Shown: positions 2-25,884, numbered from the stretch's first letter. The stretch: DNA of 64,000 bases from Verrucomicrobiia bacterium (GCA_020849895.1 JADZFN010000012.1:7258-71257); one strand, 5' to 3'. Notes: a model not told the origin generated them from the letters alone. Made by a program: numbers and translations.

Positions 2-1378
2 CCGTGGATGTACGTGGCGGTCGGCCAGGGCAACTGGGAGCTTTTCGCCGTCAACGCCGACACGGGGGAGACGAAGTGCCTGGCGGACGTCCAGGGCGAG
101 AAATGCCGGGTCGAGGTCAGCCAGGGCAAGGACGTCTGCACCGCCTCCGTCAACGGAGGGGAGAAAAACGAGAAGTTCTGGTTGGTGGATGGCAAGGCCC
201 TGCCCATGGTGGCCGGGCAAACGCCTCCGGGCACGCCGATGAGCCAGAAGAAGTACGCGCACGTGGAGTGGAAGAACACCAAACCGATGGATGTCTCCCA
301 GCCGCCGGAGCTGGACAAGGAGCGCTGGGTGGAGGCGGATGGTCGGGGCGAGGGGGAAATCTTCTGGCGACCGGCCGGGTCCACGGGCGAGTACAAGTCG
401 CTCAAATTCGCGATCAAAAACGCGGAGCCTGTCCGCATCGAGTCGCTGATCGCCCTGCCGGATGGCTCGCTGCTGGGCAACACCGATTCGTACAACGGTT
501 TTTTCCGCTATTTCCCTGCGGACCGGAAGCTGGACTACTACGGCAAACACGGACCGAGCGGAGTCCAATCCGTGGTCGCCGAGGGGAAGGTCTGGTTCGA
601 CGGCTACCCCAACGTCCACCTGTATGCCTACGATCCCGCGCAACCGTGGACCTCGAAGCCGAACAACCCCAAGGACGCAAAGGTGAACCCGGAAGTCATC
701 GGCTCCTTCGGACAGGGCATCACCGAGGCTCACCACTGCAGGTTCCTCCTGGCCCCGGGCAACGGCCGAATCTACATCTGCGGCCACCGCGAGCGATGGA
801 GCACGGGTACGGGCCTGGGCTGGTACGAGATCGCCACCGGCAAGAAGTTCGGCCTGGGCCAGGCCAACAAGAAGGTCGAGCCCGAGGGCTTCATCGCCCT
901 GCCCAGGCTGGGACGGCTGGTTCTTTCCGTTCAGACCCTCGGGAAGGGCGACGCCCAGCTCATCGTCTACGACATGGATCTCAACGAGGTCGAGCGCCTC
1001 ACCCTCAAGCCCGGCCTGACCAATACCGGCCGGATCTTCAACGGTGACGACGATGGCAAGTTCCTTGGATGCTTTGAGAACCCTGGGCCCAACGATGCCG
1101 AGGCAAAGAGCCACACGCTGTACCTCTACGACCTGGCGGCGAAGAAGATCGAGAGGAGCGTGACCCTACCCTGCGACGCCATGGTCTTCCGTCGGCCCAA
1201 GGACGGCAGTTTCTGGATCAAGCTGGCCAACGGCCTGCTGGCCAGGCTGGATCCCCGCACGCTGGAGCTCAGGCCCGTGGGGCAGCTCGAACGGAAGTTC
1301 AGTTTTCCAACCTGGCAAGGGGCGGACCTCTACGGCGCCTGCGGGGGCGAGCTCGTGCGCGTCGTCGGCGTGAAGTGA
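2..1378 (+). CDS. secreted beta-propeller-like repeat protein, family paralog 1 (5'-truncated at window edge)
   Basis: Open frame runs from base 2. The ATG at 8 is internal: the context PW-MYVAVGQG matches PWVYVAVGQG in the interior of paralog 6217..8259. About 50 % identity to that paralog over blocks such as YNGFFRY and HRERWSTGTGLGWYEIATGKKFGLG. GC3-rich codon usage. The stop is coupled to the next gene (GTGA). Confidence 0.6.
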   Translation, partial: PWMYVAVGQGNWELFAVNADTGETKCLADVQGEKCRVEVSQGKDVCTASVNGGEKNEKFWLVDGKALPMVAGQTPPGTPMSQKKYAHVEWKNTKPMDVSQPPELDKERWVEADGRGEGEIFWRPAGSTGEYKSLKFAIKNAEPVRIESLIALPDGSLLGNTDSYNGFFRYFPADRKLDYYGKHGPSGVQSVVAEGKVWFDGYPNVHLYAYDPAQPWTSKPNNPKDAKVNPEVIGSFGQGITEAHHCRFLLAPGNGRIYICGHRERWSTGTGLGWYEIATGKKFGLGQANKKVEPEGFIALPRLGRLVLSVQTLGKGDAQLIVYDMDLNEVERLTLKPGLTNTGRIFNGDDDGKFLGCFENPGPNDAEAKSHTLYLYDLAAKKIERSVTLPCDAMVFRRPKDGSFWIKLANGLLARLDPRTLELRPVGQLERKFSFPTWQGADLYGACGGELVRVVGVK

Positions 1379-4005
1379 TCGCCATGGCCCCGACATCCTC
1401 AGGGTCCGCTGCGCCCGCGGCTTTGCGCGCGGGAGGCCTGTGGACCGCGGAGGTCCGATTCTGGCTGGCCCAGGAACCGTACTCCCCCGCGCACGCGCCG
1501 CACACCCGTTCCCGATGGTCCACCCGCGTCCGCTTCGCGGGGAGCGCGTCCGAGTGGCGCTTTGAGTTTGAGTGTCGCGCCGATCCGCCCGGGAAGGAGG
1601 CGCCGATCCGTCCCCTCGGCGACCCCGACGTGTGGCAGGGGGAATACGTGGAGGTCTTCATGCCCTGCGGTGAAGAGGGGGAATGCCTCCATCTGAGCGT
1701 GACGCGCTCCGGGTTGGCGATCAGCGAGCGCCACGACAAGCGGCGCGACCCGATCCCCGGCTGGCGGGGGACCGCCCGTGAGGTGAAGGACGGCTGGCGC
1801 GCCGAGATCGTCGTTCCGCGGGGTGCGCCGGGCCTCCCCGGGAAATTCCGTCTCGTGCGCTGGGTGCCGGGCGAGGGGCTTACCCGGTGGCCGACCCCGT
1901 TCGGTTCGTGGTGGCTCGTCGCCCCGCCGGATTTCCTTGAGGTCACCGGGGCAGGCGCCGCGCCCGCGCCCTCGGAGGACGAGATCGGGAAGTTCATCCG
2001 CGAACGCGAGCGGGGCCTTTTCGTTTCCGCCGGTCTCCCCGTGCCGGGAGAGGTCGCGGATCTCGGCTTCCTGGATCCGGTTCCCGCGGGGGAAGGGGGG
2101 TTTCTCCGGACGTTCCAGTTGCGCGCGGAAAAGAATCCGTGGCTGGGTTTCGACCTGCTTCCGCCGGCAAACATGGTGCATGCCCGCGACATGCTGGGGA
2201 ACCGCTTTTGGTATCACGACGCCTCCGTCCAGATGAGGGCGCCGTTCGACTGGGACACGGGCAGGGGCGACCCGTTCGTGATGGTCCACCTGACGCGTTT
2301 CGATTTCCTCGCGGACCTCGTGGCCGCGTGGCGTGAGACCGGCGACCTTGCCTTCGCCCGCAAGGCCATCGAGTGCGTCGCGACGTGGCTGGAGCGCCAC
2401 GACCTTCGCCAGTACCTGACGCCGGCGCGCTACCGCGCGCGTTGGAGCTGGCTGAACCTCCCTCATCGGCTCGTCTGCATGATGCAGACCGTGGGTTCGC
2501 TCGCCGGGACCGGCCTCGTCGGGGAGGGCCTTCTCCTGCGGCTTTACCAGGCCGTGGCGGGGGCGCTCCAGGTCCTCGATGGCAGCATGATGGCCCGGCA
2601 CTACAACAAGAACCACAGCCTGATCATCGCGGACCACGGGGTTGTGCTGTCGGTCCTCTGCTCGGAACTCCGCTGCGCGGCGCCGATGCGCGAGCGGTAC
2701 TTCGAGCATTTCCGCCGCTCCCTCGGGGTCCAGTTCCTTCCGGACGGTGTCCAGTGGGAGCTTTCGACGATCTACCACATGATCTGCTACCAGCGGCTGA
2801 CCGAGGCCACGTCGATGTGCGAGAAGGCCGGGATCCCCGTTCCTCCCGACCTCACCGGGTGGCGGCGCCGGATCATGACGGTGGGAGCGCGCTACCTCAC
2901 GCCGCACGGGCGGGTCTTCAACTTCAACGATGGAGGCATGCCGGGCACCGTGGACGCCATCGGCCGCCCCGACGACACCTTCGTCAGCCTGATCCTGCGG
3001 GAGGGCCCGTCCCTCGATGCGAACGAGGCGTTGGCCCTCGCCACGAACGGGCGGCAGGGAGCGATCTTTCCTCCTTACAGCCACGCGATGCCCTGGGCCG
3101 GGCACTTCATCCTGCGCGACGGCCCGGGGCCGGAGAGCACGGGCCTGGCGTTCGACGCCGGGCCGCTCGGCATGGGACACGCTCACGAGGACGCGCTCAC
3201 CCTCACGATGACCTCCTTCGGGAAGACGCTCCTCGCGGACCTCGGTTCGGGCGCCTACGACAACACCCTTCCCATGCGCGGCTACAGCATGTCCACCGAG
3301 GGACATTCGACGATCTGCGTGGACGGCTGCGGGCAGGCGGGCGCATGGTTCCCCGAGACCTGGAGCCGCAAGACTTCGCTCGAGGGGCGTCACTGGTTCG
3401 GTCGCGCCGTTCAGTTCGTGGCCGGGGAGTACGGCCTTGGGTACGGGGACGAGGGGGCGGTTCGCGTGGAGCATCGCCGCGCGGTCCTCCTCGTGAACGG
3501 GGCGTACGTGGTGGTCTTCGACCGGCTCCTCGGGGAAGGGGAGCACCTCCTTGAGTCGCGCTTCGTGTTCAACGCGCTTCCCTGGCGCGAGACCGAACGC
3601 GGCCTGCGGACGACCAGCGGCACCGGCGACCTCGACGTGCGGGCGATCTGGCCCGTCGCCCTCGCGAGGGAGGTGGCCTGTGGGCAGGAGAAGCCGTTCG
3701 CGGGCTGGGTGATCCGCGGCCTCTACGGGCAGGAACCCGCCCCGCGACTCACTTTCTCGGCGAAGGTGCCGCTCCCCGCCTGTTGGGTCACCCTCCTCAC
3801 GCCGTTCCGCGACGCCGCGGAGATCCCCGAGGTCGCGGCGGAGAAGCACCGCGATGAAATCAGGGTTCGCCTGGCGACCGCGCGTTCAACCGCGTTGCTC
3901 GTGGTGCGTGAGGACCCGTTCAAGGTTGATTTCGAGAATGAGCGGGTGACGTTTTCTGCCGCGGCCGGCGCGGGCGGGAAGTTTGCGTTCCGGGAGGAGG
4001 AGTAA
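1375..4005 (+). CDS. heparinase II/III-like family protein (putative polysaccharide lyase)
   Basis: 876-aa frame with the Hepar_II_III core motif GHAHEDALTLTMTSFGKTLLADLG and NFNDGGMPG. The GTG at 1375 (or ATG at 1384) overlaps the upstream stop. The TAA stop overlaps the next ATG (TAATG at 4003-4007). The opposite-strand 816-aa ORF is Arg/Gly-rich shadow. Confidence 0.7.
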   Translation: MIAMAPTSSGSAAPAALRAGGLWTAEVRFWLAQEPYSPAHAPHTRSRWSTRVRFAGSASEWRFEFECRADPPGKEAPIRPLGDPDVWQGEYVEVFMPCGEEGECLHLSVTRSGLAISERHDKRRDPIPGWRGTAREVKDGWRAEIVVPRGAPGLPGKFRLVRWVPGEGLTRWPTPFGSWWLVAPPDFLEVTGAGAAPAPSEDEIGKFIRERERGLFVSAGLPVPGEVADLGFLDPVPAGEGGFLRTFQLRAEKNPWLGFDLLPPANMVHARDMLGNRFWYHDASVQMRAPFDWDTGRGDPFVMVHLTRFDFLADLVAAWRETGDLAFARKAIECVATWLERHDLRQYLTPARYRARWSWLNLPHRLVCMMQTVGSLAGTGLVGEGLLLRLYQAVAGALQVLDGSMMARHYNKNHSLIIADHGVVLSVLCSELRCAAPMRERYFEHFRRSLGVQFLPDGVQWELSTIYHMICYQRLTEATSMCEKAGIPVPPDLTGWRRRIMTVGARYLTPHGRVFNFNDGGMPGTVDAIGRPDDTFVSLILREGPSLDANEALALATNGRQGAIFPPYSHAMPWAGHFILRDGPGPESTGLAFDAGPLGMGHAHEDALTLTMTSFGKTLLADLGSGAYDNTLPMRGYSMSTEGHSTICVDGCGQAGAWFPETWSRKTSLEGRHWFGRAVQFVAGEYGLGYGDEGAVRVEHRRAVLLVNGAYVVVFDRLLGEGEHLLESRFVFNALPWRETERGLRTTSGTGDLDVRAIWPVALAREVACGQEKPFAGWVIRGLYGQEPAPRLTFSAKVPLPACWVTLLTPFRDAAEIPEVAAEKHRDEIRVRLATARSTALLVVREDPFKVDFENERVTFSAAAGAGGKFAFREEE

Positions 4006-5549
4006 TGACTTCTGCTCTCCCCGTGATTCCCGTTCGGCGCGGCCCGCACCGAATCTGCTCTGATCAAATCAACGTGCCACGCCCCATGAACCCCAACCCG
4101 CCGCTTCTCATCCTCTCCCCGGCCTCTCCGACCGCTGCCTACACCCAGTACATTCGCCAGTTCGTGGATGTTGGCGTTCACTTTCCCTTCGCTGACGACT
4201 ACGCGTTGCCGCGCGGGCTGCCGTCGGACCTCGCGGGAATCCGGTGCGTGGTGATCGATCCGGCGCGGCGTGAGGAGTTTTCGCAGGGGCCGCTTGCGGC
4301 CCGGTTGATCGAGTTCGAGCGCGGCGGGGGCCACCTCTTCTGGCCCGACCCGAACACTCCCACCGGGGGAGCGACGGGCGACCTCATCGTCCGACATTCG
4401 GTCGCGCGCATCATCAACACCGCGGGCCTGCCCATGGGCGACCCGGCGATGATCGCGCGTTTGCAGGAGGTGGACGACGCGTTCCTGGTGGGCGCCTGCA
4501 AGGGTTCAACCGCGGACGAACTGGGCCAGTACGTGCGGATGAGGCACTATTTTCCGGAGCCCGTGGGCATGTGGGCGATGCCGACCGCGATCGAGGCCGC
4601 AGAGTTCTTTGGTGAACCGGCGCTTGCCGACCCGGTCTGGGCACATATCGCCGCGTATTACCCGCAGTGCGACCATCAACCCGACCGCCATGGCACCCAG
4701 CATTTCCTCGATTACGCGGAGAAGACCGGTGACCGGAAGCCCCTGGAGCATCTCGTCGCCGTTTGTCGAGCGTCGAACCCCTGGCCACGGCTCTGGCGGA
4801 AGGGAGACGTTTTCCTCAACTGCGACCTGCACGTGCCGGATGGCGCCGACGCGGACCATCCCCCGGAGATCGTCCTCCGCAACGCGTGGGTCTGGCCCGA
4901 GACCAACCTTTGGATCGGAGAGACGTATGCGACCGTGTCCCGCTTTACGGGGGAGGCGCGCTGGCTCGACCGCGCGGTGGCTCACGTGCTCGAGGCGCAC
5001 CGGTGGCTTTTCGAGCCGAAAACCGCCCTGTACTGGCACGTCGGACGGCCGGGCGGCCCGGACCTTCGTTCCGCGCCGTGGGCGCGAGGCGACTCTCATT
5101 TCCTTTGGGGCGTGCGCTCGATGCTGAACCTCATGCCGGAGGAGCATCCGAAGCGGCGAGACCTCTGCGGCCTGCTGGGCGACCACCTCGAGGGGTTGCT
5201 GCGCGTCCAGGGCGCCGACGGCCTGTGGCTCAACGTGCTCGATGCCTCCCCGTCGGATAGTCGGCCGTGCTCGTCGGCCTCCTCGCAATTCGTCCGCATC
5301 TACGCGCGGGCATACGCGAGGGGATGGCTCCGCGACGAGCGGATCCCGCCGATGGTGGAGCGCGCGTGGAAGGGCCTGAAGACGAAGATCTGGGACGGAC
5401 GCTTCCTTGCGTGGTGCGTGGGGACGTCGCACGGCCTCAACCGCCAAGTGTACCTGTCGCGGCCGCACGATTCCATGCGCTGCTGCCGCTCCGCGATCCT
5501 CTCCGCGTGGATGGAGATCCAGAAGATGCGCGGGGTGACGAAGGGATGA
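4005..5549 (+). CDS. glycoside hydrolase family 88/105-like protein (unsaturated uronyl hydrolase fold, PF07470-like)
   Basis: 514-aa frame. W-A-R-G-x-x-H-x-x-W-G (PWARGDSHFLWGV) and the LWLNVLD block resemble the (alpha/alpha)6 unsaturated glucuronyl/rhamnogalacturonyl hydrolases. Translationally coupled to the upstream lyase. Confidence 0.5.
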   Translation: MTSALPVIPVRRGPHRICSDQINVPRPMNPNPPLLILSPASPTAAYTQYIRQFVDVGVHFPFADDYALPRGLPSDLAGIRCVVIDPARREEFSQGPLAARLIEFERGGGHLFWPDPNTPTGGATGDLIVRHSVARIINTAGLPMGDPAMIARLQEVDDAFLVGACKGSTADELGQYVRMRHYFPEPVGMWAMPTAIEAAEFFGEPALADPVWAHIAAYYPQCDHQPDRHGTQHFLDYAEKTGDRKPLEHLVAVCRASNPWPRLWRKGDVFLNCDLHVPDGADADHPPEIVLRNAWVWPETNLWIGETYATVSRFTGEARWLDRAVAHVLEAHRWLFEPKTALYWHVGRPGGPDLRSAPWARGDSHFLWGVRSMLNLMPEEHPKRRDLCGLLGDHLEGLLRVQGADGLWLNVLDASPSDSRPCSSASSQFVRIYARAYARGWLRDERIPPMVERAWKGLKTKIWDGRFLAWCVGTSHGLNRQVYLSRPHDSMRCCRSAILSAWMEIQKMRGVTKG

Positions 5550-5556
5550 AGGAGGC

Positions 5557-5610
5557 GGTAGCCCGTGCTGTCCCGGCACGGGAGCTGCCGTAGGGACACG
5601 GCGGGCTACC
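5557..5610. repeat. REPIN (inverted REP doublet) GGTAGCCCGTGCTGTCCCGGCACGGGAGCTGCCGTAGGGACACGGCGGGCTACC
   Basis: Nested palindromes (GGTAGCCCG...CGGGCTACC, TCCCG GCA CGGGA, GTAGGGAC). A near-identical copy lies at 6167..6222. Sits immediately 3' of the RAYT gene. Confidence 0.75.
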
Positions 5611-6016
5611 GGGGACATGAGGTTTCCTGACCAAAGCCGAACCATTTCCACTCGGATGGTTCCCTGACCAAACCAGCGCGGACGGGGTTCAGGGCCATGT
5701 ACCAGGACTTCTCCTCGACGGATTCATCCTGCCGCAGGCGACGGTCAAAGAAGTTGTCCTGCCAGTGGAGGGCGAGAGTACGGGTGGTGTAGCGCTTCCA
5801 GTTCTGCATGAGTTTCGCGAGCGACACACCGAGTGGCAGCTGGATCAGCAGGTGAAGGTGGTCCGGCATGATGACGTACGCGCGGCAGAACCATTTGGCT
5901 TGGGCGTGGTAAACGAGAATCGACTCCACGATCCTCCCGGCACAAGCCAGCAGGACCTCGGATCGACGGGGTAGGGCGCATTGCGTCACGTAGAACGTGA
6001 AGTCTTCCGGACGCAC
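5606..6016 (-). CDS. REP-associated tyrosine transposase (RAYT, IS200/IS605 TnpA-like Y1 HUH enzyme)
   Basis: HUH motif YVIMPDHLHLLIQLP, the WQDNFFDRRLR block and the catalytic-Tyr block SWYMALNPVRAG. The N-terminal F-YVT motif (EDFTFYVTQCAL) follows a GTG at 6016. An alternative GTG lies at 6052. The track ORF extends to 6445 only by read-through across REP sequence. The TAG stop lies inside the REP terminus GGGCTACC. Confidence 0.75.
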   Translation of the reverse strand: MRPEDFTFYVTQCALPRRSEVLLACAGRIVESILVYHAQAKWFCRAYVIMPDHLHLLIQLPLGVSLAKLMQNWKRYTTRTLALHWQDNFFDRRLRQDESVEEKSWYMALNPVRAGLVREPSEWKWFGFGQETSCPR

Positions 6017-6113
6017 CGAATCCGGTGGTTGGTGCCGGAGGCGTGAGGCCACGACTGAGCGTAAGCACAGGCGAGGTTGCTGCTGCAACGAAATCCCGCG
6101 CGCGGATGTTGGA

Positions 6114-6140
6114 CCCGTCGTAGGGACACGACGGGCTACC
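6114..6140. repeat. single REP unit CCCGTCGTAGGGACACGACGGGCTACC
   Basis: Hairpin CCCGTCG/CGACGGG with a GGGCTACC tail. Variant of the REP half found in the two REPINs. Confidence 0.6.
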
Positions 6141-6166
6141 AAGGGGAATGTGGGGGAATGCTCTGC

Positions 6167-6222
6167 GGGTAGCCCGTGCCGTCCCGGCACGGGACCCGCC
6201 GTAGGGACACGGCGGGCTACCG
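6167..6222. repeat. REPIN GGGTAGCCCGTGCCGTCCCGGCACGGGACCCGCCGTAGGGACACGGCGGGCTACCG
   Basis: About 95 % identical to 5557..5610. Its terminal GGGCTACC supplies the TAG stop (6217-6219, minus strand) of the beta-propeller gene 6217..8259. Confidence 0.75.
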
Positions 6223-8259
6223 CCCTTCCACCTTCACGCGGAAGACCTCGCCATCCGCGGCGCCGTAGAGGTCGTTCCCGACCCACAGGACGGGATGGAG
6301 CGCCTTGGGAAGCTTTCCGACCGGGGTGAGTTCGAGGGTCTCCACGTTCAGTCGGCAGAGTGAGGAGTCCTTGATGATCCACCACGTCCCGTCCGAGGGA
6401 CGCTGGAAGGCGTTCTCCTGGAGAACCCCGTCCACGTCCGCCCACTTCACGACGGCCTTCTTCTCGAGGTCGTAGAGGTAGAGGGCGTCCTTCGCCTCGC
6501 CGTCGATCCTCCCGAGGAGGGCAGGATCCCTGCCGATCGCGGTGAGGAACCCGGTCGCGGGGAGCCCTTCCTTCACGGTAAGCCGTTCCACCTCCTTGAG
6601 GTCGAGGTCGTAGACCCGGAGTTGGGCGGTTCCGACCGGGGCGCCCTTGGTTTCGGAATGCACCCGCCCGGAGACCACCACTCGTCCGGCCTTCGGGAGC
6701 AGGGCGAAACCCTGGGGATCGACGTCCTTCATGTCAGACCCGAGCCCGAACTTCTTTCCCGTGGCGAGTTCGTAGTAGCCGAGGCCGGTTCCCGTGCTCC
6801 AGCGCTCGCGGTGTCCGAGGAGGTAGAGCCGGCCGTTGGGCCCGAGAAGGATCCCCTTGGAGTGGTGCGCCTCGGTGACGCCCTGCCCGAAGTAGCCGAC
6901 GAGGCGCGGGTTGTCGCCGGGGTTGCCGGCGTTGGCCTTCTGCGGCGCCTTCCAGGGCTGGTCCGGGTCATAGACGTACAGCCCCACGTTCGGATAGCCG
7001 ATGTACCAGGCCTTGCCCTCCGCGACGGTGATCAGCGGGCTGCTCGGGCCGGCCTTCCCGAAATATTCGAACTTCGAGACTTTGGTGTGGTAGCGGAAGA
7101 AGCCGTTGTACTGGACGACGCTTCCGAAAACGTCGCCATCGGGCAACTCGGCCATGGACACGATTTTCTGCGCCGCCGCGCTCTTCACGTGAAAGCTGAC
7201 CGTCTTGAAGTCCTCCTGCGCGCCGGCGGGGCGCCAGCGCACATGGGAGAGTCCCGAGGGATCCATTTCCCCGAGGCCCTGCGGATCGAGCTCGGGCGGC
7301 GTCCCCTCGGGGATGGGTTTCGTCAACTTCCACGGGATATGGGGATACGCGTTGTTCGCCAGGCGAGCGGAGTCCGGCGGCTGGGTCTCCGAGAGCTTGC
7401 CCTCCACGCACCACACGCGCTTGCCGCCGCCTTTCTCGGTGAGGCCGGCCGTGACAAAATCCTTCTCCGCCACCTCGATCCGCGAACCATCGCCCTTGCG
7501 CTCCGCAAGGAGGCGCTTTTCCCCGGTGTCCACGTTGAGGGCCACGAGTTCCCAGTCTCCCTGCCCGACGGCGACGTACACCCAGGGGAGGTCGAGGGCG
7601 AGGGTGTAGCCGTAGGTGAGGCTCGCGGGGCGGTTCGCCCCGATGTCGGTGAAGACCTTCCATTCGAGGGTGTCCGGGTTGATCCGCACGACCGCGGTCT
7701 TGCCGCTGTAGCCCTGGGTGGTCCCGTAGAGGCAGCCGTCCTTTCCGAGCCTGAACTGGTAAAGGCATCGGTCGTTGAAGAAGGGCTTCCACTCGGAGAG
7801 TTCCCCAAGGATCTTGAGCGCGTCCTCGACCGGGTCGTAGTACCACATCTGCATGAAGTCGACCGGGTAGAAGACGCGCCCGTTCTCCGCCCGGATCCCC
7901 AGGCGGCCGTGGAAGCCGGGCAGCCCCAGGGTCTTCACCTTGTTGCCGGCGAGGTCGGCGATGATCCACTCGGCGTCAGGCCGCAACTCGGGGTCTTCGA
8001 AGGCGACGTAGACGCGGCCGGTGCCCTCCACCTTCTTGCGCACGTACTTGAAGTCCGTGGTGCCCGCGTAGTTCATGAACTGCCCGATCCAGCGCCACTC
8101 GCCGCGGGAGTTCTCGACGAGGGTGCTCACGTTGGCGCGCGCCGTCTTCACCGGCGCGCCGAGGTTCTCGGCAAGAAGGGAAGGCACCTCCGCGCGGAGG
8201 AATGAAGTGGTGAGCAGCGAAGCGAGGAGCAGAACGGTGCGGCAGTTCATGGGGATCAT
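6217..8259 (-). CDS. secreted beta-propeller-like repeat protein, family paralog 2
   Basis: 680 aa with an N-terminal signal peptide (MIPMNCRTVLLLASLLTTSFLRAEVPS). Paralog of 2..1378 and a more distant relative of 13286..15382 (shared NPRLV..F.G and GHRERWSTGTG blocks). The antisense 527-aa ORF is shadow. Confidence 0.7.
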   Translation of the reverse strand: MIPMNCRTVLLLASLLTTSFLRAEVPSLLAENLGAPVKTARANVSTLVENSRGEWRWIGQFMNYAGTTDFKYVRKKVEGTGRVYVAFEDPELRPDAEWIIADLAGNKVKTLGLPGFHGRLGIRAENGRVFYPVDFMQMWYYDPVEDALKILGELSEWKPFFNDRCLYQFRLGKDGCLYGTTQGYSGKTAVVRINPDTLEWKVFTDIGANRPASLTYGYTLALDLPWVYVAVGQGDWELVALNVDTGEKRLLAERKGDGSRIEVAEKDFVTAGLTEKGGGKRVWCVEGKLSETQPPDSARLANNAYPHIPWKLTKPIPEGTPPELDPQGLGEMDPSGLSHVRWRPAGAQEDFKTVSFHVKSAAAQKIVSMAELPDGDVFGSVVQYNGFFRYHTKVSKFEYFGKAGPSSPLITVAEGKAWYIGYPNVGLYVYDPDQPWKAPQKANAGNPGDNPRLVGYFGQGVTEAHHSKGILLGPNGRLYLLGHRERWSTGTGLGYYELATGKKFGLGSDMKDVDPQGFALLPKAGRVVVSGRVHSETKGAPVGTAQLRVYDLDLKEVERLTVKEGLPATGFLTAIGRDPALLGRIDGEAKDALYLYDLEKKAVVKWADVDGVLQENAFQRPSDGTWWIIKDSSLCRLNVETLELTPVGKLPKALHPVLWVGNDLYGAADGEVFRVKVEGR

Positions 8260-12766: not shown

Positions 12767-13285
12767 GGAGAACCCATCATGCGCCACCGCGCGAGTTTCG
12801 GGCAATCGCACGCGCGTGGCAATTCCTGGGAGCGAGGTCATGGGAACGGGGAAAGTTCGCGGACGATTTCGGCGTAACGGCGGACGCGCGCGACCGGGGT
12901 TGCGGGGGTGACGGGGCTGCCGAGGCTCATGATGAAACGGCCGACGTTGCGGCGGCCCGCGTCGAGCTGGCGGGCGAGATCGCCCTCCCCCGAAGCGGCA
13001 AAATCCTCGGGGTCGAAAGGAACGGCCGCCGGGACCATCGCATCCACCCCTGCTTCCGTCCCCGCGAGGCGCGCGAGGGAGCGAGTGATGCGCTCCGGCG
13101 ACCACGGGCTTCTCAAGGCGACGCAACTCCCCGCCGCGCGGATCCACGAGGCACACGCCACTCTCCGGCTCCTCGATGCGGAACCGCTCGCGATCTCGGC
13201 GCGGATGGGAGGGACGGACGTCGAACCAGTCCATCGCGGGGCGAACGGAGGAGCTTGCCCACGTTCCGAGGCACGCGGAACCACT

Positions 13286-19345: not shown

Positions 19346-22300
19346 CTATCGGACCCGGATCAACCGTCGTCCATTGGCCAAGGCCTCCTCGGTGAAGGAT
19401 GTCGTGATCCCCCCGGTCTCGTCGATGACCGAGCTCGCGGCCTTCCAGGTAGCGCCCTCGTCGGCGGAGACCTCCACTTGTCTTCCCGGGAGGGTGAGGG
19501 TGCAGGCCGCGTTCGCACGGAGCTCGAAGACACCCGGGCCCCGCGCGTCGAGGCGCCGCAGGAAAAGGTGCGCGGCGACTGAAACCCGGTCGCCGGGGCC
19601 CTGGTCGTGGAAAACCACCATACGGCGTCCATCCCCGTCGGAATCCGGCAGGTCCGCCTCCTGGAGTTTGCGGCCTTCCACGCGCAGCCGGTAGGTGTCA
19701 CCCGGCATGTCGACGGTCCACTCGCGATCCCCCCGCTCGTTGCGGACAAGTTGCTGGTGGTAGGGCCAGCCGGGGTGCGGATCATTGGACGCGTCGAGGT
19801 ACTCTCGGGGGTGCTGGCGGGTGAAGAACATCAGGCCGTCCTCGCGGATCCGGGTGACCTCGAGATCGAGCATCTTCTCGCCGGGCTGGACCTCCACGAG
19901 GGTCTTGCCATCCGGCGCAAACTTGCGCTGCTTTTCCGTCGCAATCATGGCCAAGGTCAACTTGCCGTCCCCGTTGGCGTCCGTCACGTCCTGCTGCAAG
20001 AGGGTGTTCTGGTGGCGTCGTGCCGCGGGCCATCCGGTGTAGAAGAACCGGTCGCCGAGGGTGACCGAGACGCGGCCGATCGCTTTTCCCGCCTCGTTGA
20101 CCGCGGTCGTTCCCTCATACGCCTCGGGGTGATAGCTGTGCAGGTACGGGGGAACATCCAGCTCGGCGAACCCCTCCTTCGCGTCCAGGCGTCCCACACC
20201 GCCCTGGTAGACGGCCGAGGGGCGGTCGAACTCCAAGCGCGTGCCGTTGATGCGGGCCGCTTTCCGCGTGGTCTGGTGGCGGGGGTTGGCCACCTCAAGG
20301 ATCTCGCCATCGAGCAGCCGGGCCGGCCACGCGTCGCTCAGGGTGGCGATCCGTCCGCCGTCCGTCGTCGCCCTGATCTCCGAGCGGTATTCCGCCCGCG
20401 CGAGCCTCGCGGAAATCCCGGAGTGGGAGACCTCCGTCCCTCCCACGAGGCCGAGCAGCCGCAACCCTCGGGCATCCCGGGAGATGAACGCGAGATTTCC
20501 AGAAGCCCGCGCGTTTCCTTCGATCGCAGCGGACTTCGTGCGATCCGGGCCGGAGAAGAGAAGGTCGGTCTGACCGAACGCGGTCTTCACCTCGATCGCG
20601 ACGGCCCGGGTGGCGCCCTCGCCCGCGTTCTCAACCTTCAACTGTCTCACCGAGGTCACAAAGGGCTGGCCCGCGTACGGTTCGATCACCGAGGGATAGA
20701 CCGAGCCCGAGACCTCCGCACCGTCGCGGCGCACGTAAAGGAACGGAAAATTGTAGAAGCGCGAATCCATTTTCTTCGCGTACCAGTTGGCCACCATCAC
20801 CTTCTCCCCGCCGTGGCCGAGGAGGTGGACCTTCGTGAATTTCTCGGGGGCGGCCGGGTCGTACGATTTCCCGGACATCGCTCGCTCGGCGTTGCCCAGC
20901 TTGATCCCGTTCACGACCTCTTCCTTGCGCCGCAGTTTCCAGGTCGCCTCCAGCACCTCGGGGGCGACCCCCTCCCTTGCAGTGCCCTCGAGGTGCTCCT
21001 TCAGGTAGCGCTGGGCGACCCCACTCGTCGCCGGCGCCAGTCCGGCGTTGCTGGTGAACTCCTCCGAGACACACCCGTGGAAACACCAGGTGTGCGTCCT
21101 TCCGCCCCGGACGCGGAAGACATCGAACAGGTAGCCGCTGGGGGTTCTCTCCCTTCCGTTTCCCGGGTCGCACATCACCTGCAGCACGCCGCGTGCGTAG
21201 AGAGAGACCTGCGGGTGCGTCTCGGCCCTGGCCCCGCCGAGCACGTACTGCGCGCCCGGCAGTGGTTTGAAGGCGTCCAGCCACCCGAGGGCGGTCGTGT
21301 TCTGCGGCCCGCCGGAGAAATCCTGCTCGTCCACCTGGACGACGTTGTGCACGTACGAACTCATGCACGACGGGTGGCCGTACCGCCCAAGATGCCGACC
21401 TCCAAGATCGCTGCTCATTCGGAAACCGTGCGCGTATACCTCCAGGTCAAGGGTGTCGGGGTGCGCGTGCCCCGAACCGATTCCAAAGCGCAGCATCGCC
21501 GCGTTCTTGTGCCGCAGGTCCTCCGCGTCGGAGCCTTCCTCCAGCACGGCGATCCCGAAACCCTCGAGGACCCGGCTCGCGGCGTGGCGGACCGGGTCTC
21601 GTCCTGCCTGCGCAGCCTTCACGATCTGCTGCCATTCCGCGTCCGGGCAGGCGCCCTGGCCCATTTGGTTCGCAAGCACCCAGGCGATCCGCGGGTCTTT
21701 CGTCCATTCCCAGCTTCGGAGGAAGTACTCGCGCCACGCGGGGTCGTACATGAGCTTCGGGGCGAGGGTCGGCGTACCTACGTCGCCCACGCCCGCCGCA
21801 TGCCCGCCGGCCACGTGCAGCCCGAGGATCGAGGCCGCCTGCGCGGCGAGTTGCGGGAAGCGGGACGGGTTGACCACGTCGAAGCGCTTGTCCCCGCCCG
21901 CCGAGACGTGGCGGGCCAGCAAGTCCGCCACCTCGAAGAGTTCGTCCTTCGACTCGAAAGGGGCGTAGTAAGTCGAGCCGATGTAGTTCAGGCCGTCGCG
22001 GCTGTAGTTCCCCACCACGCTGTCGGGAAAACCGCAGAGAGTGTTGCGCAAGTAGATGCGTCGGAAGTATCCGTCAAGGATCCGCGTGCTGACTTCGTTC
22101 GGGCCAAGCACGGCCGCCGAGACGGGGACCACGGTCTGCGCGTAGAAGACGTGCTGCACGCCGTCCTGCGCCCCGCGCTGCACCAGGAAGGTGTCCAGCA
22201 GGCGAATGACGTCTTCCGGCGACCTCACCCAGGGGATGAACCGCCCCAGGCGCGCGGCGAGCTCGGCGTTTCCCTGGATGTAGGGGAAGAGCTTGTCGTA

Positions 22301-23626
22301 AGCGTGGCAGAGCCGGACATACTCGGGGCCGCTCCATTGCCCCGCGGGGCCGCGACCACCCTCGCCCGCCCTGAAGGCCCGTCCAGGGTAGTAGATGTTC
22401 TCCACCGCGTGCAGCTTGTAGTCGTAGCCGGGAAACCGGTACGCGACCGCGGCCAGAAGGAACGCGGCGTCCGCCGCGGCCCCGAGGTCGTCATAGAGCA
22501 GGTAGCGGTCCGCAAGGGAGGGCTTCTCGGGATCGCCGCCGCACAACGCCCCCATCATCGCGGCGTATCGGCTGCCGATATGGCGCGGAAGGATACCGTA
22601 GTTGAACGAGGCCTCGAGGCCGGTCTTCTCTTTCTCGTAGAAGAAACCGCCGCCGTCTTCCGGAAAGGGCCAGGGCGCGGGCAGCGGGCGGCCCGCGCGG
22701 TAATCCGCCATCGTGTATCCCAACGCGAGGGTGCGGTTGGTGAGCGTGCCCGGCTGATCCCAGACCGCGCCATGGGCGCTCACCCAGTTGCCGAGGGGCT
22801 TCCCAAGGACTTTCTCCTGATGGGAGATCGCCTGCTTGAGCATGTCCGACGCCTTCGGCGCGCATATATCGAGGAGGTAGTAGTTCCCGCAATTCGCGTT
22901 GATGGGCATCAGCGACTCGTTCCAGATCACCCGGTCGCGCGCCGCACGCACTTCCATCGAAAGGGGCGCGGACTGGACCGGCGCGTGGACCCTTCCCCCT
23001 TTCGCGGCAGTCGCCCGAAGCTGTTGGATTTCCTCGGGCGTGGAGAGCGTACGGCGGTTCTTGAGCGCGCGGAACGCGAAGTTCGCAAGAGGGTTGCGCA
23101 ACTCCACGCGGTCGACCACCAACTCGCGGATCCGTCCGCGCGGGCCAAGATAGATTTCGGCAGAGTAGCCCCGCTCCTCGGGCGTGTGGAAGTAGATGCG
23201 GGCGACGTGCTCGTACAGGCCGCGTTCGGGGAGCGGCACGCGAAGCCGGTACTCCTCCGCCCCGCCCCCGGGGGCGCTGTTCACCTTCAGGTGGAGGTAG
23301 AGCGGCACGGCCTCCCGCGTGCCCGGTCCCGCCACAAACGGGTCGGGACCGCCAAGCCGGGCGGCAACATGCACACTGTGCATCCCCACGGGCAGGCGGC
23401 CAAGTTCGAGCCTGAAGCCCGAGCCTTCCCCCGCGAGGAGCACGGCCTTGCCTCCGCTGGCGGCCCGATCGTCGATAACCCTGGCCGCGCCCAGCGCCGG
23501 GAGGGTTTCCGCCTCGAACGACCGAACCAAGGGGTCCGGCTCGAGCACCTGGGTCAGCGTGTCGAGGTGGGCGAACGCCGTCGGGACAGCGAGCAGGCAG
23601 GCAAGCGGAACAGCGGGGAGCCTCAT
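19346..23626 (-). CDS. large secreted heparinase II/III-like family protein (putative polysaccharide lyase, 1426 aa)
   Basis: Signal peptide MRLPAVPLACLLAVPTAFA. Hepar_II_III core IGSGHAHPDTLDLEVYAHGFRMSSDLGG. Its ATG overlaps the upstream stop (ATGA). The antisense 1435-aa ORF is shadow. Confidence 0.65.
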   Translation of the reverse strand: MRLPAVPLACLLAVPTAFAHLDTLTQVLEPDPLVRSFEAETLPALGAARVIDDRAASGGKAVLLAGEGSGFRLELGRLPVGMHSVHVAARLGGPDPFVAGPGTREAVPLYLHLKVNSAPGGGAEEYRLRVPLPERGLYEHVARIYFHTPEERGYSAEIYLGPRGRIRELVVDRVELRNPLANFAFRALKNRRTLSTPEEIQQLRATAAKGGRVHAPVQSAPLSMEVRAARDRVIWNESLMPINANCGNYYLLDICAPKASDMLKQAISHQEKVLGKPLGNWVSAHGAVWDQPGTLTNRTLALGYTMADYRAGRPLPAPWPFPEDGGGFFYEKEKTGLEASFNYGILPRHIGSRYAAMMGALCGGDPEKPSLADRYLLYDDLGAAADAAFLLAAVAYRFPGYDYKLHAVENIYYPGRAFRAGEGGRGPAGQWSGPEYVRLCHAYDKLFPYIQGNAELAARLGRFIPWVRSPEDVIRLLDTFLVQRGAQDGVQHVFYAQTVVPVSAAVLGPNEVSTRILDGYFRRIYLRNTLCGFPDSVVGNYSRDGLNYIGSTYYAPFESKDELFEVADLLARHVSAGGDKRFDVVNPSRFPQLAAQAASILGLHVAGGHAAGVGDVGTPTLAPKLMYDPAWREYFLRSWEWTKDPRIAWVLANQMGQGACPDAEWQQIVKAAQAGRDPVRHAASRVLEGFGIAVLEEGSDAEDLRHKNAAMLRFGIGSGHAHPDTLDLEVYAHGFRMSSDLGGRHLGRYGHPSCMSSYVHNVVQVDEQDFSGGPQNTTALGWLDAFKPLPGAQYVLGGARAETHPQVSLYARGVLQVMCDPGNGRERTPSGYLFDVFRVRGGRTHTWCFHGCVSEEFTSNAGLAPATSGVAQRYLKEHLEGTAREGVAPEVLEATWKLRRKEEVVNGIKLGNAERAMSGKSYDPAAPEKFTKVHLLGHGGEKVMVANWYAKKMDSRFYNFPFLYVRRDGAEVSGSVYPSVIEPYAGQPFVTSVRQLKVENAGEGATRAVAIEVKTAFGQTDLLFSGPDRTKSAAIEGNARASGNLAFISRDARGLRLLGLVGGTEVSHSGISARLARAEYRSEIRATTDGGRIATLSDAWPARLLDGEILEVANPRHQTTRKAARINGTRLEFDRPSAVYQGGVGRLDAKEGFAELDVPPYLHSYHPEAYEGTTAVNEAGKAIGRVSVTLGDRFFYTGWPAARRHQNTLLQQDVTDANGDGKLTLAMIATEKQRKFAPDGKTLVEVQPGEKMLDLEVTRIREDGLMFFTRQHPREYLDASNDPHPGWPYHQQLVRNERGDREWTVDMPGDTYRLRVEGRKLQEADLPDSDGDGRRMVVFHDQGPGDRVSVAAHLFLRRLDARGPGVFELRANAACTLTLPGRQVEVSADEGATWKAASSVIDETGGITTSFTEEALANGRRLIRVR

Positions 23627-24900
23627 GCGCGCCTCATGCCCGGCGCTCCCCGCGAAGGGGGACCGACCGCTGCCGACGGCGCCCGCGCCGAACGCTCGCG
23701 AGATCCGCGCCCCGCTGAGGGTTCCGCGGGCGGAGGCGGCGGGATGTCCACCGGGATTCTCGTTTCAACACTCCGGTCGATGGCCTCGCACAGGGCGACC
23801 GCGTTGCGCCCATCGAGGATGTCGGGGTGGACCTGGCGGTTGTTCCGGATCGCGTCCTCGATCAGCAGGGACATGCTCTTTTCGCCCCCGCCATGCGCCA
23901 CTCCCTGGGGATAGAAGTTGGCGCGCTCGACGCGGGCCGAGTCACGTGGGCGATACTCCAGGAAGAGCCGTTCGTCCATCGCGTAGCGGACGAAGATCGC
24001 GCCCCTGTCGCCGATCACCTCGTAGGTGGTCTGGTACTCGGGCGTGAACTGGCACTCGACGTAGCTGCAGCGCCCGCCCCCCTTGTAGTCGATGGTGGCG
24101 ATGGCGTTGTCGTAGACATTCGTCTCCCGCGCGAACACGCAGAGCGAATCGGGGAAGGGAAACGGCATCCCCCCGATGAGGGCCTTGTCGCCGTTCTCCG
24201 GACACGTGCCGCGCTCGTCGCACGCCCTGCACTTGAGGTCGTCCGGCTTGTCCCCGCCGAAGTGATCGAGGCCACCCGACGCGAAGACGCGCACGGGGTC
24301 GTCGCCCATGAAGAGGTTGCAGATGTCGAGGAAGTGGACCCCCTTCGCCAGCGTCAGCGACCGCACCTGGTCCTTCCGTCGATAGCGGGAGGCGCGGTAG
24401 AAGCACGCCCCCATGCCCACGCTGTCGAGGCAGGTCACCAGTCGCACCTTGCCGACCGCCCCCTCGTCGATGAGTCTCTTCGCTTCCTGGATCAGAGGAC
24501 AGGTGCGGATCTGCATGTCCACGATGCCGATCCTCCCCGATCGCCTCCACGCGGCCACTAGGCGGTCGGCTTCCTCGATGCTCTGGCACATCGGTTTGGC
24601 AACCTGGATGTTGAGACCCGCTTCTAGGCAGTCGATGGCATTCTGGGCATGGTGGTTGTCCCACGAGTTGATCGTCACCACGTCCGCGTCCGCGCGGGCA
24701 AGCCAGGACGTGAGATCGGACGTGAACTCCGCCTTCGCAGCCTTGTCTCCGAAGAACTGCTTTGCCTTGTCCAGCGCCGCGGGGCTGGGGTCCACCACCG
24801 CGACAACTTCGCAATGGACGAACCGGAGCCAGTAGTTGATGACATGTCGGCCCCGTTCGCCCGCCCCCAGGAGCGCGACTCGGATGGGATTTTTATGCAT
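23623..24900 (-). CDS. Gfo/Idh/MocA family NAD(P)-dependent oxidoreductase
   Basis: Rossmann N-terminus MHKNPIRVALLGAGERGRHV after the ATG at 24900. The track start at 24960 is upstream read-through. Pro-rich C-terminal tail. Overlaps the start of the lyase gene by 4 nt. Confidence 0.8.
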   Translation of the reverse strand: MHKNPIRVALLGAGERGRHVINYWLRFVHCEVVAVVDPSPAALDKAKQFFGDKAAKAEFTSDLTSWLARADADVVTINSWDNHHAQNAIDCLEAGLNIQVAKPMCQSIEEADRLVAAWRRSGRIGIVDMQIRTCPLIQEAKRLIDEGAVGKVRLVTCLDSVGMGACFYRASRYRRKDQVRSLTLAKGVHFLDICNLFMGDDPVRVFASGGLDHFGGDKPDDLKCRACDERGTCPENGDKALIGGMPFPFPDSLCVFARETNVYDNAIATIDYKGGGRCSYVECQFTPEYQTTYEVIGDRGAIFVRYAMDERLFLEYRPRDSARVERANFYPQGVAHGGGEKSMSLLIEDAIRNNRQVHPDILDGRNAVALCEAIDRSVETRIPVDIPPPPPAEPSAGRGSRERSARAPSAAVGPPSRGAPGMRRA

Positions 24901-24989
24901 GGGGAACTCCTTCCGCGGCGGCGACCTGCTCAAGCTTCCGTGGGCGTCGGCGACAGGCAAGGGGATTGCCGTAGGGAAATCATGGCCCG

Positions 24990-25011: not shown

Positions 25012-25884
25012 TCATGCCCCCCTTCCCCGGGCCACGCTGCCACGGCGCTGGGCAAACGAAGCGGTCGGGTTGGTCCCAAAGTGTTCCTTGAACGCCTTGC
25101 TGAAGTCGTTGGGATAGTGGTAACCCAACTGGTACGCGACTTCCTTCACCGACATCTGCCGCAGCATCTCCCTGGCGCGCTCCATCTTGAGCTGCTGGAA
25201 GAAGGCCGCGGGCGACCTCCCGAGGCCATCCAGAAAGGCGCGCCGAAGCGTCGAGGGGGAGACCTGCAGGTAGTCGCAGATATGATGGACGGGGTTGGCG
25301 ACTTCCAGGTGCTCCCGCATCCAACGGACCGCGAGGGCGCACGGTCCTTCCTGCGACAACACCGATATCCCCGCCCCGCGGGAACGCGCCAGCGCCACTT
25401 CCAGCGCCAGGCGCAGGTGCTTGAGGGCGAGCGGCGTGAACTGGTCCGAATAAAAGACCTCCTGGCGACATTCGGCGTGGATCTGCTCGAGACGGCGCAC
25501 GACCCCCGGGCTCGCCTTCCAGCGGAGCAATCCCTTCCGCGGGGGAATGCAGGCCTCGCAGGCCGGCGGGGCCTCCCACTGCCACACCAGCACGTTCGAC
25601 TGACGGTCGCTCACGTCCCACAGCGACTGAACGCACCCCGGCGCGAACACGAAGACGTCGTTCGCTCCCACGGGAAACTCCTTCAGCCCCCAGCGGAGGA
25701 TGGGATTGCCCCGGCGGATCACGTGCCAGCCCCACGCCGTGGCCGGCACGTGCGGGGAAGGTTTCTGCCCATAGAACCGGTGGCCCCACGCGAGGTAGAG
25801 AAGATCGAGACGCGAGCCGCGGGGACGCATCCAGTGGAGCCGGTGCGGCGTGGGGAACGTGGAGACCTGGACCGGATCGTCCAT
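25012..25884 (-). CDS. AraC family transcriptional regulator
   Basis: C-terminal AraC HTH (ICDYLQVSPSTLRRAFLDGLGRSPAAFFQQLKMERAREMLRQMSVKEVAYQLGYHYPNDFSKAFKEHFGTNP). Cupin-like N-terminal part. ATG at 25884 (MDDPVQV). Confidence 0.85.
   Translation of the reverse strand: MDDPVQVSTFPTPHRLHWMRPRGSRLDLLYLAWGHRFYGQKPSPHVPATAWGWHVIRRGNPILRWGLKEFPVGANDVFVFAPGCVQSLWDVSDRQSNVLVWQWEAPPACEACIPPRKGLLRWKASPGVVRRLEQIHAECRQEVFYSDQFTPLALKHLRLALEVALARSRGAGISVLSQEGPCALAVRWMREHLEVANPVHHICDYLQVSPSTLRRAFLDGLGRSPAAFFQQLKMERAREMLRQMSVKEVAYQLGYHYPNDFSKAFKEHFGTNPTASFAQRRGSVARGRGA

Follow-up and report, generated by a model that had tools for sequence, protein, structure and literature searches.

A gene cluster encoding three heparinase-fold proteins in a Verrucomicrobiia bacterium, with a probable role in the breakdown of uronic acid-containing glycan

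We describe a cluster of genes occupying the first 26 kb of a 64,000-nucleotide stretch of DNA from a Verrucomicrobiia bacterium (GCA_020849895.1, JADZFN010000012.1:7258-71257; this whole stretch is called the window below), in which we number the genes G1 to G14 by position. We consider it probable that the cluster is carbohydrate-active and, operating without SusC/SusD, breaks down a uronic acid-containing glycan by β-elimination followed by hydrolysis. We read it in this way because the genes encode two PL12-like lyases that retain their catalytic residues (G2 and G6), a third protein with a lyase fold (G12), an exo-polygalacturonase-like GH28 (G11) and a GH88/105-like barrel (G3). The cluster is real but fairly ordinary, in that carbohydrate-active enzyme clusters of this kind are already known from bacteria of the Planctomycetota-Verrucomicrobiota-Chlamydiota (PVC) group.

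The sequence GH[AQ]HxD[AT]L, which forms the core motif of heparinase II/III proteins, occurs exactly three times in a six-frame translation of the whole 64 kb (3175..3198 on the plus strand; 10321..10344 and 21449..21472 on the minus strand), where an arithmetic estimate gives a chance expectation of ~3e-5 in ~8,000 residues. One occurrence sits inside each of G2, G6 and G12, the same three open reading frames (ORFs) to which an earlier interpretation, made by a model from the DNA alone (here, the sequence-only reading), had assigned the motif. Both G2 (876 aa; 1375..4005, plus strand) and G6 (853 aa; MCC7517879.1; 9403..11964, or to 12075, minus strand) carry the two Pfam domains Hepar_II_III_N and Hepar_II_III_C, at 55 and 87.5 bits in G2 and at 135.9 and 111.1 bits in G6, against gathering cut-offs of 22 and 24. 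The two proteins are 29% identical to one another, and in phmmer searches each matches the heparinase III structure 4mmh (E 6.7e-36 for G6, 7e-11 for G2), with 5jmd and 4fnv matching too.

At the level of individual residues, N362, Y416, H417 and H542 of G6 pair with N216, Y270, H271 and H400 of the 4mmh chain; assuming a 24-residue offset, these read as Asn240, Tyr294, His295 and His424, the roles of which we take to be as described in the heparinase III literature. The same G6 residues, together with H544 and D546, are conserved without change, or almost so, in G6, G2 and nine homologs, with G2 carrying NKNH, STIYH (IYH) and GHAHED, and G6 carrying TNW, GYH and GHQHED. In the PL40 enzyme Uly1040 an Asn-Trp/His set neutralises the carboxylate, a Tyr serves as the acid, a His as the base and a second His lies at the metal site, and this Asn/Tyr/His-x-His signature is common to PL12, PL15, PL17, PL39 and PL40 enzymes (PMC12915356). 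In these alignments, G2 and G6 keep the complete PL12 catalytic set.

The nearest characterised enzymes are the heparinase III proteins of Pedobacter heparinus (4MMH) and Bacteroides thetaiotaomicron (BT4657; 5JMD and 5JMF), along with 4FNV, which have both Pfam domains in common with G2 and G6, align with them over ~430 residues and have their catalytic equivalents retained. The similarity is nonetheless remote, with many mismatches in the alignment of G6 to 4MMH, and both proteins have an additional N-terminal region (~290 aa in G2, 1375..2240; ~200 aa in G6, 11365..11964) that matches nothing in Pfam, NCBIfam or the PDB. Characterised heparinases are exported, whereas neither G2 nor G6 has a signal peptide, and there are no sulfatases or other heparin-locus genes near them.

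G12 (19346..23626, minus strand; MCC7517886.1, annotated as 'hypothetical') is a secreted heparinase-fold protein of 1,426 aa. Its predicted layout runs from a signal peptide through a CBM35/CBM6-like β-sandwich (~33-177), a helical toroid (~197-673) and a β-sandwich containing the GHAHPD motif (~685-1130) to C-terminal β domains. An AlphaFold model (pLDDT 80) gives a β-sandwich, a helical domain and a large β domain, and so reproduces the order of toroid followed by antiparallel β-sandwich, although confidence is low in the immediate surroundings of the His motif (718-721 and 743-754). Conventional searches with the G12 sequence returned nothing at threshold from Pfam or NCBIfam (for Hepar_II_III_C, 14 bits where 24 are required, at E 0.038 and confined to residues 717-769) and no significant match among PDB sequences (best E 0.2); a precomputed PF07940 match exists for one of its 24 homologs. 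Comparison of family profiles with hhalign, however, aligned the G12 family to the G6/G2 family over 539 columns (G12 390-1075, G6 267-836) with a probability of 96.9% and an E-value of 2e-10, and to G6 alone with a probability of 91%, whilst the top structural matches of the G12 model are lyases. Because homology at the profile level coincides with the predicted fold, we place G12 as a distant member of the heparinase II/III fold superfamily.

The toroid plus β-sandwich lyases that G12 resembles include PL17 AlgL17 (9IRQ), PL40 Uly1040 (9VTK), PL15 Atu3025 (3A0O) and exoHep (6LJL), PL39 Dp0100 (6JPH) and PL21 heparinase II (3E7J). The G12 family preserves their H-x-H motif, and a Tyr where the acid stands, without variation: Y554, H720, H722, H760 and N761 are unchanged in 21 of the 21 family sequences that cover those columns, although the alignment register of the Tyr in G12 is uncertain by one residue. 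In Uly1040 the two His residues of H-x-H are the catalytic base and the metal-site His (PMC12915356). G12 departs from these lyases in being about twice their size, in having an N-terminal CBM35-like module and ~300 extra C-terminal residues, in showing no sequence match to the solved structures, and at the position of the Asn neutraliser, which is Q491 in G12, Gln in 16 of the 24 homologs and otherwise Asp, Thr or Arg.

This variable neutraliser position is one reason to entertain a different view, in which G12, and perhaps the other heparinase-fold proteins as well, would be uronate C5-epimerases or non-catalytic binders, and the cluster would serve to reshape a polysaccharide of the cell's own surface, or its exopolysaccharide, instead of making use of an external one. 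A PEP-CTERM protein is encoded in the cluster, such sorting signals often being tied to exopolysaccharide-producing systems, and glycosyltransferases lie beside the G12 homolog of one related locus (L001). Set against this, genes for a glycosyltransferase, flippase, polymerase or exosortase are lacking from the cluster; the presence of a GH88/105-like protein makes sense only if a lyase acts before it, and there is a GH28 of the exo-acting type besides; G2 and G6 retain the whole PL12 catalytic set; and it is to lyases that G12 is structurally closest. We regard the epimerase or binder interpretation as quite improbable, and continue to treat G12 as a candidate lyase.

The family to which G12 belongs proved to be large. 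A word-index search gave 24 matches and with them the impression that the protein was very rare, which was overturned by an exhaustive search with the G12 core (190-1140) that returned 991 representatives of 50%-identity clusters at E<=1e-3, of which at least 187 reach E<=1e-30. Among the 150 matches listed, most are 1,300-2,000 aa long. Five diverse members have a core without any Pfam domain and only Laminin_G_3, FN3 or PKD modules as accessories. From these searches the family appears to be widespread and unnamed in Pfam, with no model on its ~900-residue core; CAZy was not compared.

Domain searches also recovered the other enzymes and the regulator named in the sequence-only reading, that is, the GH28, the GH88/105-like hydrolase, the Gfo/Idh/MocA oxidoreductase and the AraC protein. 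G11 (17919..19322, minus strand) matches Glyco_hydro_28 at 118.6 bits (E 4e-34) and, within the PDB, the exo-poly-α-galacturonosidase of T. maritima (3jur, E 1.3e-53) and 5olp (2e-53). The conserved catalytic motifs of GH28 enzymes are NxD, DD, G/SHG and RxK, and G11 retains them as NGD (NGDGID), DD (NDDC), GHG (GHGG) and RMK. G3 (4005..5549, plus strand; 514 aa), a GH88/GH105-like (α/α)6 protein, matches Glyco_hydro_88 at 96.8 bits (cut-off 26.6), but solely within positions 136-351 of the 352-position profile; what can be recognised is the last two thirds of the barrel, and the first ~290 residues (4005..4880) have no Pfam, NCBIfam or PDB match. Its PDB matches are 3k11 (E 6e-17) and, at 1e-6 to 1e-8, the GH105 unsaturated rhamnogalacturonyl hydrolase YteR, GH105 and the unsaturated rhamnoglycuronyl hydrolase. 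G13 (23623..24960, minus strand), an NAD(P)-dependent oxidoreductase with both GFO_IDH_MocA domains, finds its best PDB match in 8qc2 (2e-18), over the Rossmann part only. The AraC-family regulator G14 (25012..25923, minus strand; HTH_18 75.3 bits, AraC_binding weak at 17.4 bits) heads the minus-strand genes only, 51 nt upstream of G13; since the plus-strand trio G1-G3 starts outside the window, the regulator of that trio is out of view, and the single AraC regulator of the sequence-only reading is overstated.

As to substrate, we agree with the sequence-only reading that none can be assigned from sequence alone, given that the relations of the enzymes point in different directions: PL12 and GH88, together with sulfatase and GH20 neighbours in related loci, point to glycosaminoglycan- or heparosan-like chains, whereas GH28 and GH105 point to galacturonate-containing polymers. 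A more specific proposal leaves pectin, ulvan and alginate aside and takes as the target an unsulfated glycosaminoglycan-like polymer, or one of the heparosan/glucuronan type, with the GH28 as a passenger; such a polymer could derive from a bacterial capsule, or be a host- or algal-derived chain of glucuronic acid (GlcA) and N-acetylhexosamine. The sole characterised close relatives of G6 and G2 are indeed heparinase III enzymes (E 7e-36 and 7e-11), and the window genes include, in G3, a GH88-type hydrolase, the usual partner of glycosaminoglycan lyases; yet identity to heparinase III is low, the NCBI name for G6 is 'alginate lyase family protein', and the GH105 structures (rhamnogalacturonyl and rhamnoglycuronyl hydrolases) match G3 no less well than those of GH88. 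In other phyla, SGSH_C-domain sulfatases adjoin G6-type genes in 30 of the 80 loci that we recovered by scanning genomes with a G6/G2 profile, and GH20 hexosaminidases adjoin a G12-like gene in L090 and a G4-like gene in L009, but there is no hexosaminidase, sulfatase or deacetylase in the window cluster, and its GH28 resembles exo-polygalacturonases (E 1e-53). We think this narrower assignment unlikely, and prefer to speak of a uronate-containing glycan in general.

The distribution of export signals, called with a crude hydropathy script rather than a trained predictor, divides the cluster in two. Hydrophobic N-terminal leaders were found only in G4, G5, G7, G8, G9, G10 and G12; G2, G3, G6, G11 and G13 have none by this measure, even from their most upstream start codons, with the N-terminal hydropathy of G2 reaching a maximum of 0.74. 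By the same measure every enzyme that can be recognised, G12 excepted, looks cytoplasmic, and it is the unannotated proteins that would be exported. This bears on two earlier statements: that the GH28 lacks a signal peptide, which holds for G11, and that the lyases are secreted, which can be kept for G12 alone, with its signal peptide, and has to be given up for the PL12-like G2 and G6.

Three of the unannotated proteins belong to a propeller family. G4 (6217..8259, minus strand; 680 aa) is a secreted protein of an unnamed family whose model (pLDDT 93) is a tandem double seven-bladed β-propeller. G1 (2..1378, plus strand) is cut by the window start, such that we see the 3' part (456 of 694 codons) of a double β-propeller gene; it is 100% identical to residues 239-694 of IT578_01675 (P0041) and has no Pfam or NCBIfam match. 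G8 (13286..15382, minus strand; 698 aa) has a hydrophobic N-terminal segment, would be secreted or anchored, and is a distant paralog of both. G1 and G4 are 47% identical, and G8 is 25% identical to each over its C-terminal half (~350 residues; E 1e-15 with G4 and 1e-11 with G1), so that the three β-propeller paralogs listed in the sequence-only reading stand by sequence identity, with the fold taken from the G4 model. Compared with the propeller-fold lyases of PL22, PL24, PL25 and PL42, none of the three shows specific similarity in structure or sequence.

Two small genes, G5 (8338..9003, minus strand; the ORF is open to 9159, with 9003 the probable start) and G9 (15379..16059, minus strand; 226 aa), encode prepilin-type proteins of the DUF1559 / H-X9-DG type. 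G5 has a GspG-like N-terminus with FTLIELLVV and scores 32.6 bits for N_methyl and 20.6 bits, below the cut-off, for SBP_bac_10; G9 scores 31.9 bits for SBP_bac_10 and 29 bits for N_methyl, with a weak TIGR04294 HX9DG match, and H-x9-DG is present in both. Both also have Ser, and not the usual Gly, in front of FTLIELLVV. G10 (16056..17789, minus strand) is a secreted Ser/Gly/Thr-rich protein of 577 aa with a PEP-CTERM sorting signal (18.4 bits, slightly under the cut-off), and its C-terminal 228 aa are 38% identical to the product of the gene downstream of the G12 ortholog in L007. G7 (11966..12766, minus strand) is a small secreted protein of ~266 aa, counted from MKPSSLLL, with a signal-like N-terminus and weak DNRLRE/CBM96-like similarity (in NCBIfam, DNRLRE_dom at E 1.5e-5 and 25 bits, where 34 are required; in Pfam, CBM96 at E 0.011). 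It may be the protein that had been labelled 'LamG-like' before, a label we do not retain: no Laminin_G or related domain was found in any window protein, at E-values up to 10 for the unannotated ones. Laminin_G_3 is present in distant members of the G12 family (P0097 and P0112). The prepilin/DUF1559 genes and the PEP-CTERM protein had gone unmentioned in the sequence-only reading, as had a REP-associated transposase and a tRNA-Gln gene that we return to below.

Synthesising these observations, we propose the following scheme as the likeliest, in which localisation, substrate, the sequence of events, co-regulation and whatever the propeller and prepilin-like proteins contribute are what we infer. 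At the envelope, exported proteins would bind the polymer and make the first cuts, with G12, through its CBM35-like module and heparinase-fold core, as the only candidate extracellular lyase; the propellers G4, G8 and G1, the CBM96-like G7, G10 with its PEP-CTERM anchor, and G5 and G9, of the prepilin/DUF1559 type, might help to bind or to anchor. Oligosaccharides would then be imported by a transporter encoded outside the cluster. In the cytoplasm, the PL12-like G2 and G6 would cleave next to uronates by β-elimination, G3 would remove the unsaturated uronate so produced, the exo-type GH28 G11 would remove saturated galacturonate-type residues, and G13 may oxidise or reduce the released sugar or a glycoside intermediate, with the AraC regulator G14 controlling at least the G13-G12-G11 unit.

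Related loci give this scheme mixed support. Word-index searches, besides the 24 matches to G12, gave 52 to G4 and 11 to G6, the named ones coming from metagenome-assembled genomes (MAGs) of PVC bacteria; the 80 G6-type loci of the genome scan are spread over Verrucomicrobiota, Armatimonadota, Latescibacterota, Zipacnadia, Lentisphaerota, Kiritimatiellia, Planctomycetota and others. Recurrent neighbours among the 80, besides the 30 sulfatases already mentioned, are a DUF6785 membrane protein (20), PEBP (11), UxuA-like mannonate dehydratases (9) and PcRGLX-like proteins (7), and it is the sulfatases and UxuA-like enzymes, in other phyla, that link the G6-type family to the catabolism of acidic glycans. 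Only two of the 80, L010 and L011 (both Verrucomicrobiota), have more in common with the window. L010 has orthologs of G8 (65%) and G13 (74%), a G6 homolog (47%), a G12-like protein (30%) and two DUF1559 genes, along with a GH63-like gene, β-helix proteins and a GntR/LacI-type regulator; in L011 a fragment of G8 immediately precedes a G6 ortholog (65%). Beyond these, L007 combines orthologs of G12 (64%) and G13 (81%) with a G10-like gene, an AraC gene and two prepilin-like genes; L090 has a G12 homolog (49%), a GH20, the DUF6785 membrane protein, a Gfo/Idh/MocA gene, an AraC gene and a DUF1559 gene followed by a Hepar_II_III_C protein; and in L001 and L002 a G12 homolog lies beside an AraC gene.

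The recurring core that emerges from these gene neighbourhoods is a G12-like protein, a heparinase-like protein, a Gfo/Idh/MocA oxidoreductase, a regulator and DUF1559 genes, with the glycoside hydrolases differing by locus (GH28 and GH105-like in the window, GH63-like in L010, GH20 in L090). A conserved locus of PL12, GH105 and GH28 was considered and rejected, as a homolog of G3 or G11 occurs in none of the 80 G6-type loci. The sequence-only reading had built its case for the degradation of an acidic polysaccharide on precisely the set of lyase, unsaturated-uronyl hydrolase and GH28; breakdown of a uronate-glycan is still the best interpretation we can offer, whilst the set itself is not conserved.

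The DUF1559 genes show a recurrent placement, lying directly upstream of genes for large exported proteins: G5 before G4 and G9 before G8 in the window, and likewise in L009 (8941-9972), L010 (11484-12356 and 13987-14814) and L090 (4484-5188 and 21934-22599). They often overlap the downstream gene, which may encode a propeller, a β-helix protein, a G12-like protein or a Hepar_II_III_C protein. The pairing of a DUF1559 gene with a downstream exported protein is suggestive, though several of the cases are close orthologs. A strict form of it, in which prepilin genes would lie ahead of exported proteins alone, is weakened by L007, where one such gene (16217-17125) precedes the cytoplasmic-looking Gfo/Idh/MocA ortholog.

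Some further features of the related loci deserve a record of their own. A membrane protein of ~650-690 aa with DUF6785 and DUF6784 adjoins G6-type genes in the 20 loci counted above (L028 and L050-L084), mostly in Latescibacterota; it adjoins the G12 homolog in L090 (16651-18729), and the window cluster has no such gene. This protein might be the transporter that the enzyme set lacks. Distant members of the G4 family are found near uroporphyrinogen decarboxylase-like (URO-D) genes in three contexts (L005, 7967-9913 and 13916-15190; L006, 361-3357; and the P0034 contig). A Pel9A-like β-helix gene is present in both L005 and L006, and in L005 a B12-binding radical SAM gene lies directly downstream.

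A number of points weigh against reading the cluster as a single pathway for a uronate-glycan, and we gather them here. The absence of G3 and G11 homologs from all 80 related loci means that the logic of lyase, hydrolase and GH28 may be an accident of adjacency, and isolated G12 homologs exist (L003). W297-P298-E299 of G3 aligns with the W-x-D of GH105, such that Glu299 stands at the position of the Asp (MWDDT in 3qwt, LWLDD in 3k11, VWPET in G3), an Asp that we take to be a catalytic residue of GH105. To our knowledge, PL12-type enzymes act only on heparan-type linkages between GlcA or iduronic acid and N-acetylglucosamine, GH28 implies galacturonate, and we know of no single substrate that needs both. 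A domain search of the cluster found no transporter, KduI/KduD/KdgK/KdgA, Uxa/Uxu, sulfatase or esterase. The division into exported and cytoplasmic proteins comes from crude hydropathy calls, and intergenic gaps of 51-519 nt, together with the transposase, speak against one regulon.

The last of these points concerns the arrangement of the genes. At 66% G+C, the window lends itself to filtering of ORFs by third-position GC (GC3 frame analysis), which retained 15 genes in 1-26 kb (the GC3 of G1, for instance, is 0.87) and bears out the gene calls of the sequence-only reading. They form two convergent arrays, G1-G3 on the plus strand and G14 to G4 on the minus strand, with an element made of repetitive extragenic palindromic (REP) sequences and a REP-associated tyrosine transposase (RAYT) between them. 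The first gene of the plus-strand trio starts 238 codons or more before the window does, and the genes of the cluster correspond to IT578_01675-01740 of a Verrucomicrobiae MAG, where identical proteins are recorded on a 93.8-kb contig. Of the 12 junctions, seven are either overlaps (<=4 nt) or short spacers (1-23 nt), with 4-nt overlaps at G1/G2, G8/G9, G9/G10 and G12/G13. The claim that the genes are joined by 1-4-nt overlaps or spacers under 30 nt throughout is right for these seven; it fails for the other five, at G14-G13 (51 nt), G11-G10 (129 nt), G8-G7 (~519 nt), G6-G5 (243-399 nt) and G5-G4 (~78 nt), and these sizeable gaps argue for several transcription units.

Taken further, the same gaps allow the 26 kb to be seen as a mosaic of independent small units with differing substrates and regulators, and not as one regulon, the candidate units being G1-G3, G14-G11, G10-G8, G7-G6 and G5-G4. 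Such modules do occur separately elsewhere (prepilin then propeller in L009; G12, G10-like and G13 in L007; G8, G13 and G6 in L010; G12 alone in L003), GH28 and GH105 occur in none of the related loci, and a mobile element sits between the two arrays. Every unit nevertheless encodes glycan-related or exported proteins, without any other interruption; seven junctions are overlaps or gaps of no more than 23 nt; a terminator scan did no better than shuffled sequences; and the same families come together again, otherwise ordered, in L010 and L090, which suggests that function and not chance links them. We hold the mosaic to be possible, if doubtful, both as a general description and in the particular units listed, and continue to favour a cluster devoted to one class of glycan.

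Searches of the intergenic regions were largely unproductive. An Rfam scan returned tRNA-Gln only, with no riboswitch in the large gaps and no family in 12767..13285; a promoter scan found none, and terminators were in no excess over shuffles. The gap of ~520 nt between G8 and G7 (12767..13285) holds only Arg/Pro-rich ORFs that look non-coding, such as 12838..13302 on the minus strand. The numbering of NCBI protein accessions implies one additional annotated coding sequence between G6 and G12. PADLOC, run on the unannotated proteins, gave no defence-system match.

The transposase gene (5557..6222, minus strand; homologous part 5642..5998) matches NCBIfam REP_Tyr_transpos at 84.1 bits (cut-off 80) and Pfam Y1_Tnp. 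It is flanked by copies of GTAGGGACACGRCGGGCTACC at 5590, 6120 and 6201, where none is expected by chance, and no further copy occurs in the 64 kb. The copies lie within palindromic units of ~55 nt, the last copy overlaps the stop codon of G4, and the transposase sits exactly between the stop codons of the convergent G3 and G4. At its upstream edge, beyond the AraC gene, the cluster is bounded by tRNA-Gln (anticodon TTG; 26064..26137, minus strand; Rfam tRNA 67.1 bits, and found by ARAGORN), past which lie a PolX/PHP gene and housekeeping genes. G+C content is 66.8% in 1-26 kb and 64.4% in 26-64 kb. The tRNA gene, the internal REP/RAYT element and this difference in composition are weak hints of an island-like ('accessory') origin.

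All the glycan-active genes recognisable in the 64-kb window fall within 1-26 kb, the remainder being housekeeping; besides the PolX/PHP gene, 26-64 kb encodes a sugar ABC transporter (44-48.6 kb), ThiG, ClpB, LptF/G and a release factor. The transporter consists of two large genes at 44199..48632 (plus strand) with SBP_bac_1 and ABC permease domains, that is, a sugar-type importer, 18 kb from the cluster, and a link between the two is possible.

Bringing the G12 family and its neighbours together, we put forward very tentatively, and with the odds judged to be against it, a joint interpretation. The G12 family would be a new lyase (or uronate epimerase) family on the heparinase fold, unnamed by Pfam, which in PVC bacteria forms, with DUF1559 proteins, double propellers and Gfo/Idh/MocA oxidoreductases, a SusC/SusD-independent apparatus for capturing and degrading acidic glycans, and in which the prepilin-like proteins tether or partner the exported protein encoded directly downstream. 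If the exported proteins are such an outer capture and cleavage machinery, the window, L007, L010 and L090 give a compact set of candidates for the new lyase family, and DUF1559 proteins would gain a first function; if not, this is one more uncharacterised carbohydrate-active enzyme cluster in a MAG.

Measured against known systems, the cluster has partial counterparts. With pectin and rhamnogalacturonan loci it has in common the GH28 and GH105 pairing, G11 being exo-polygalacturonase-like without a signal peptide and G3 matching YteR; it differs from them in that its lyases are PL12-like, with no PL1, 9, 10, 11, 22 or pectin esterases detected in the window, and in the Glu of G3 at the W-x-D position. 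With the polysaccharide utilisation loci of Bacteroides, as exemplified by the heparin/heparan sulfate locus of B. thetaiotaomicron and its hybrid two-component sensor BT4663, it shares the clustering of lyases, an unsaturated-uronyl-hydrolase-type protein, binding proteins and a regulator. The tandem double propeller of G4 has counterparts in BT4663 and BT4673, whose periplasmic domains for glycan sensing share this architecture (Foldseek ranks 4-14), a match that is generic, with a TM-score of ~0.3 and 10-11% identity. The window differs from these loci in that no Pfam domain of a SusC/SusD pair or TonB-dependent transporter is present in any of the 15 cluster proteins, and in that its regulator is of the AraC type where theirs is a hybrid two-component system. 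Complex acidic glycans have some of their major degraders among Verrucomicrobia and the other PVC bacteria, which lack the SusC/SusD systems that make the loci of Bacteroidota easy to read. The exported partners in the window are PVC-specific prepilin/DUF1559 and PEP-CTERM proteins, and what is unusual in this otherwise familiar type of cluster is the widespread G12 family, unnamed in Pfam, and the repeated association with prepilin-like DUF1559 genes and double propellers.

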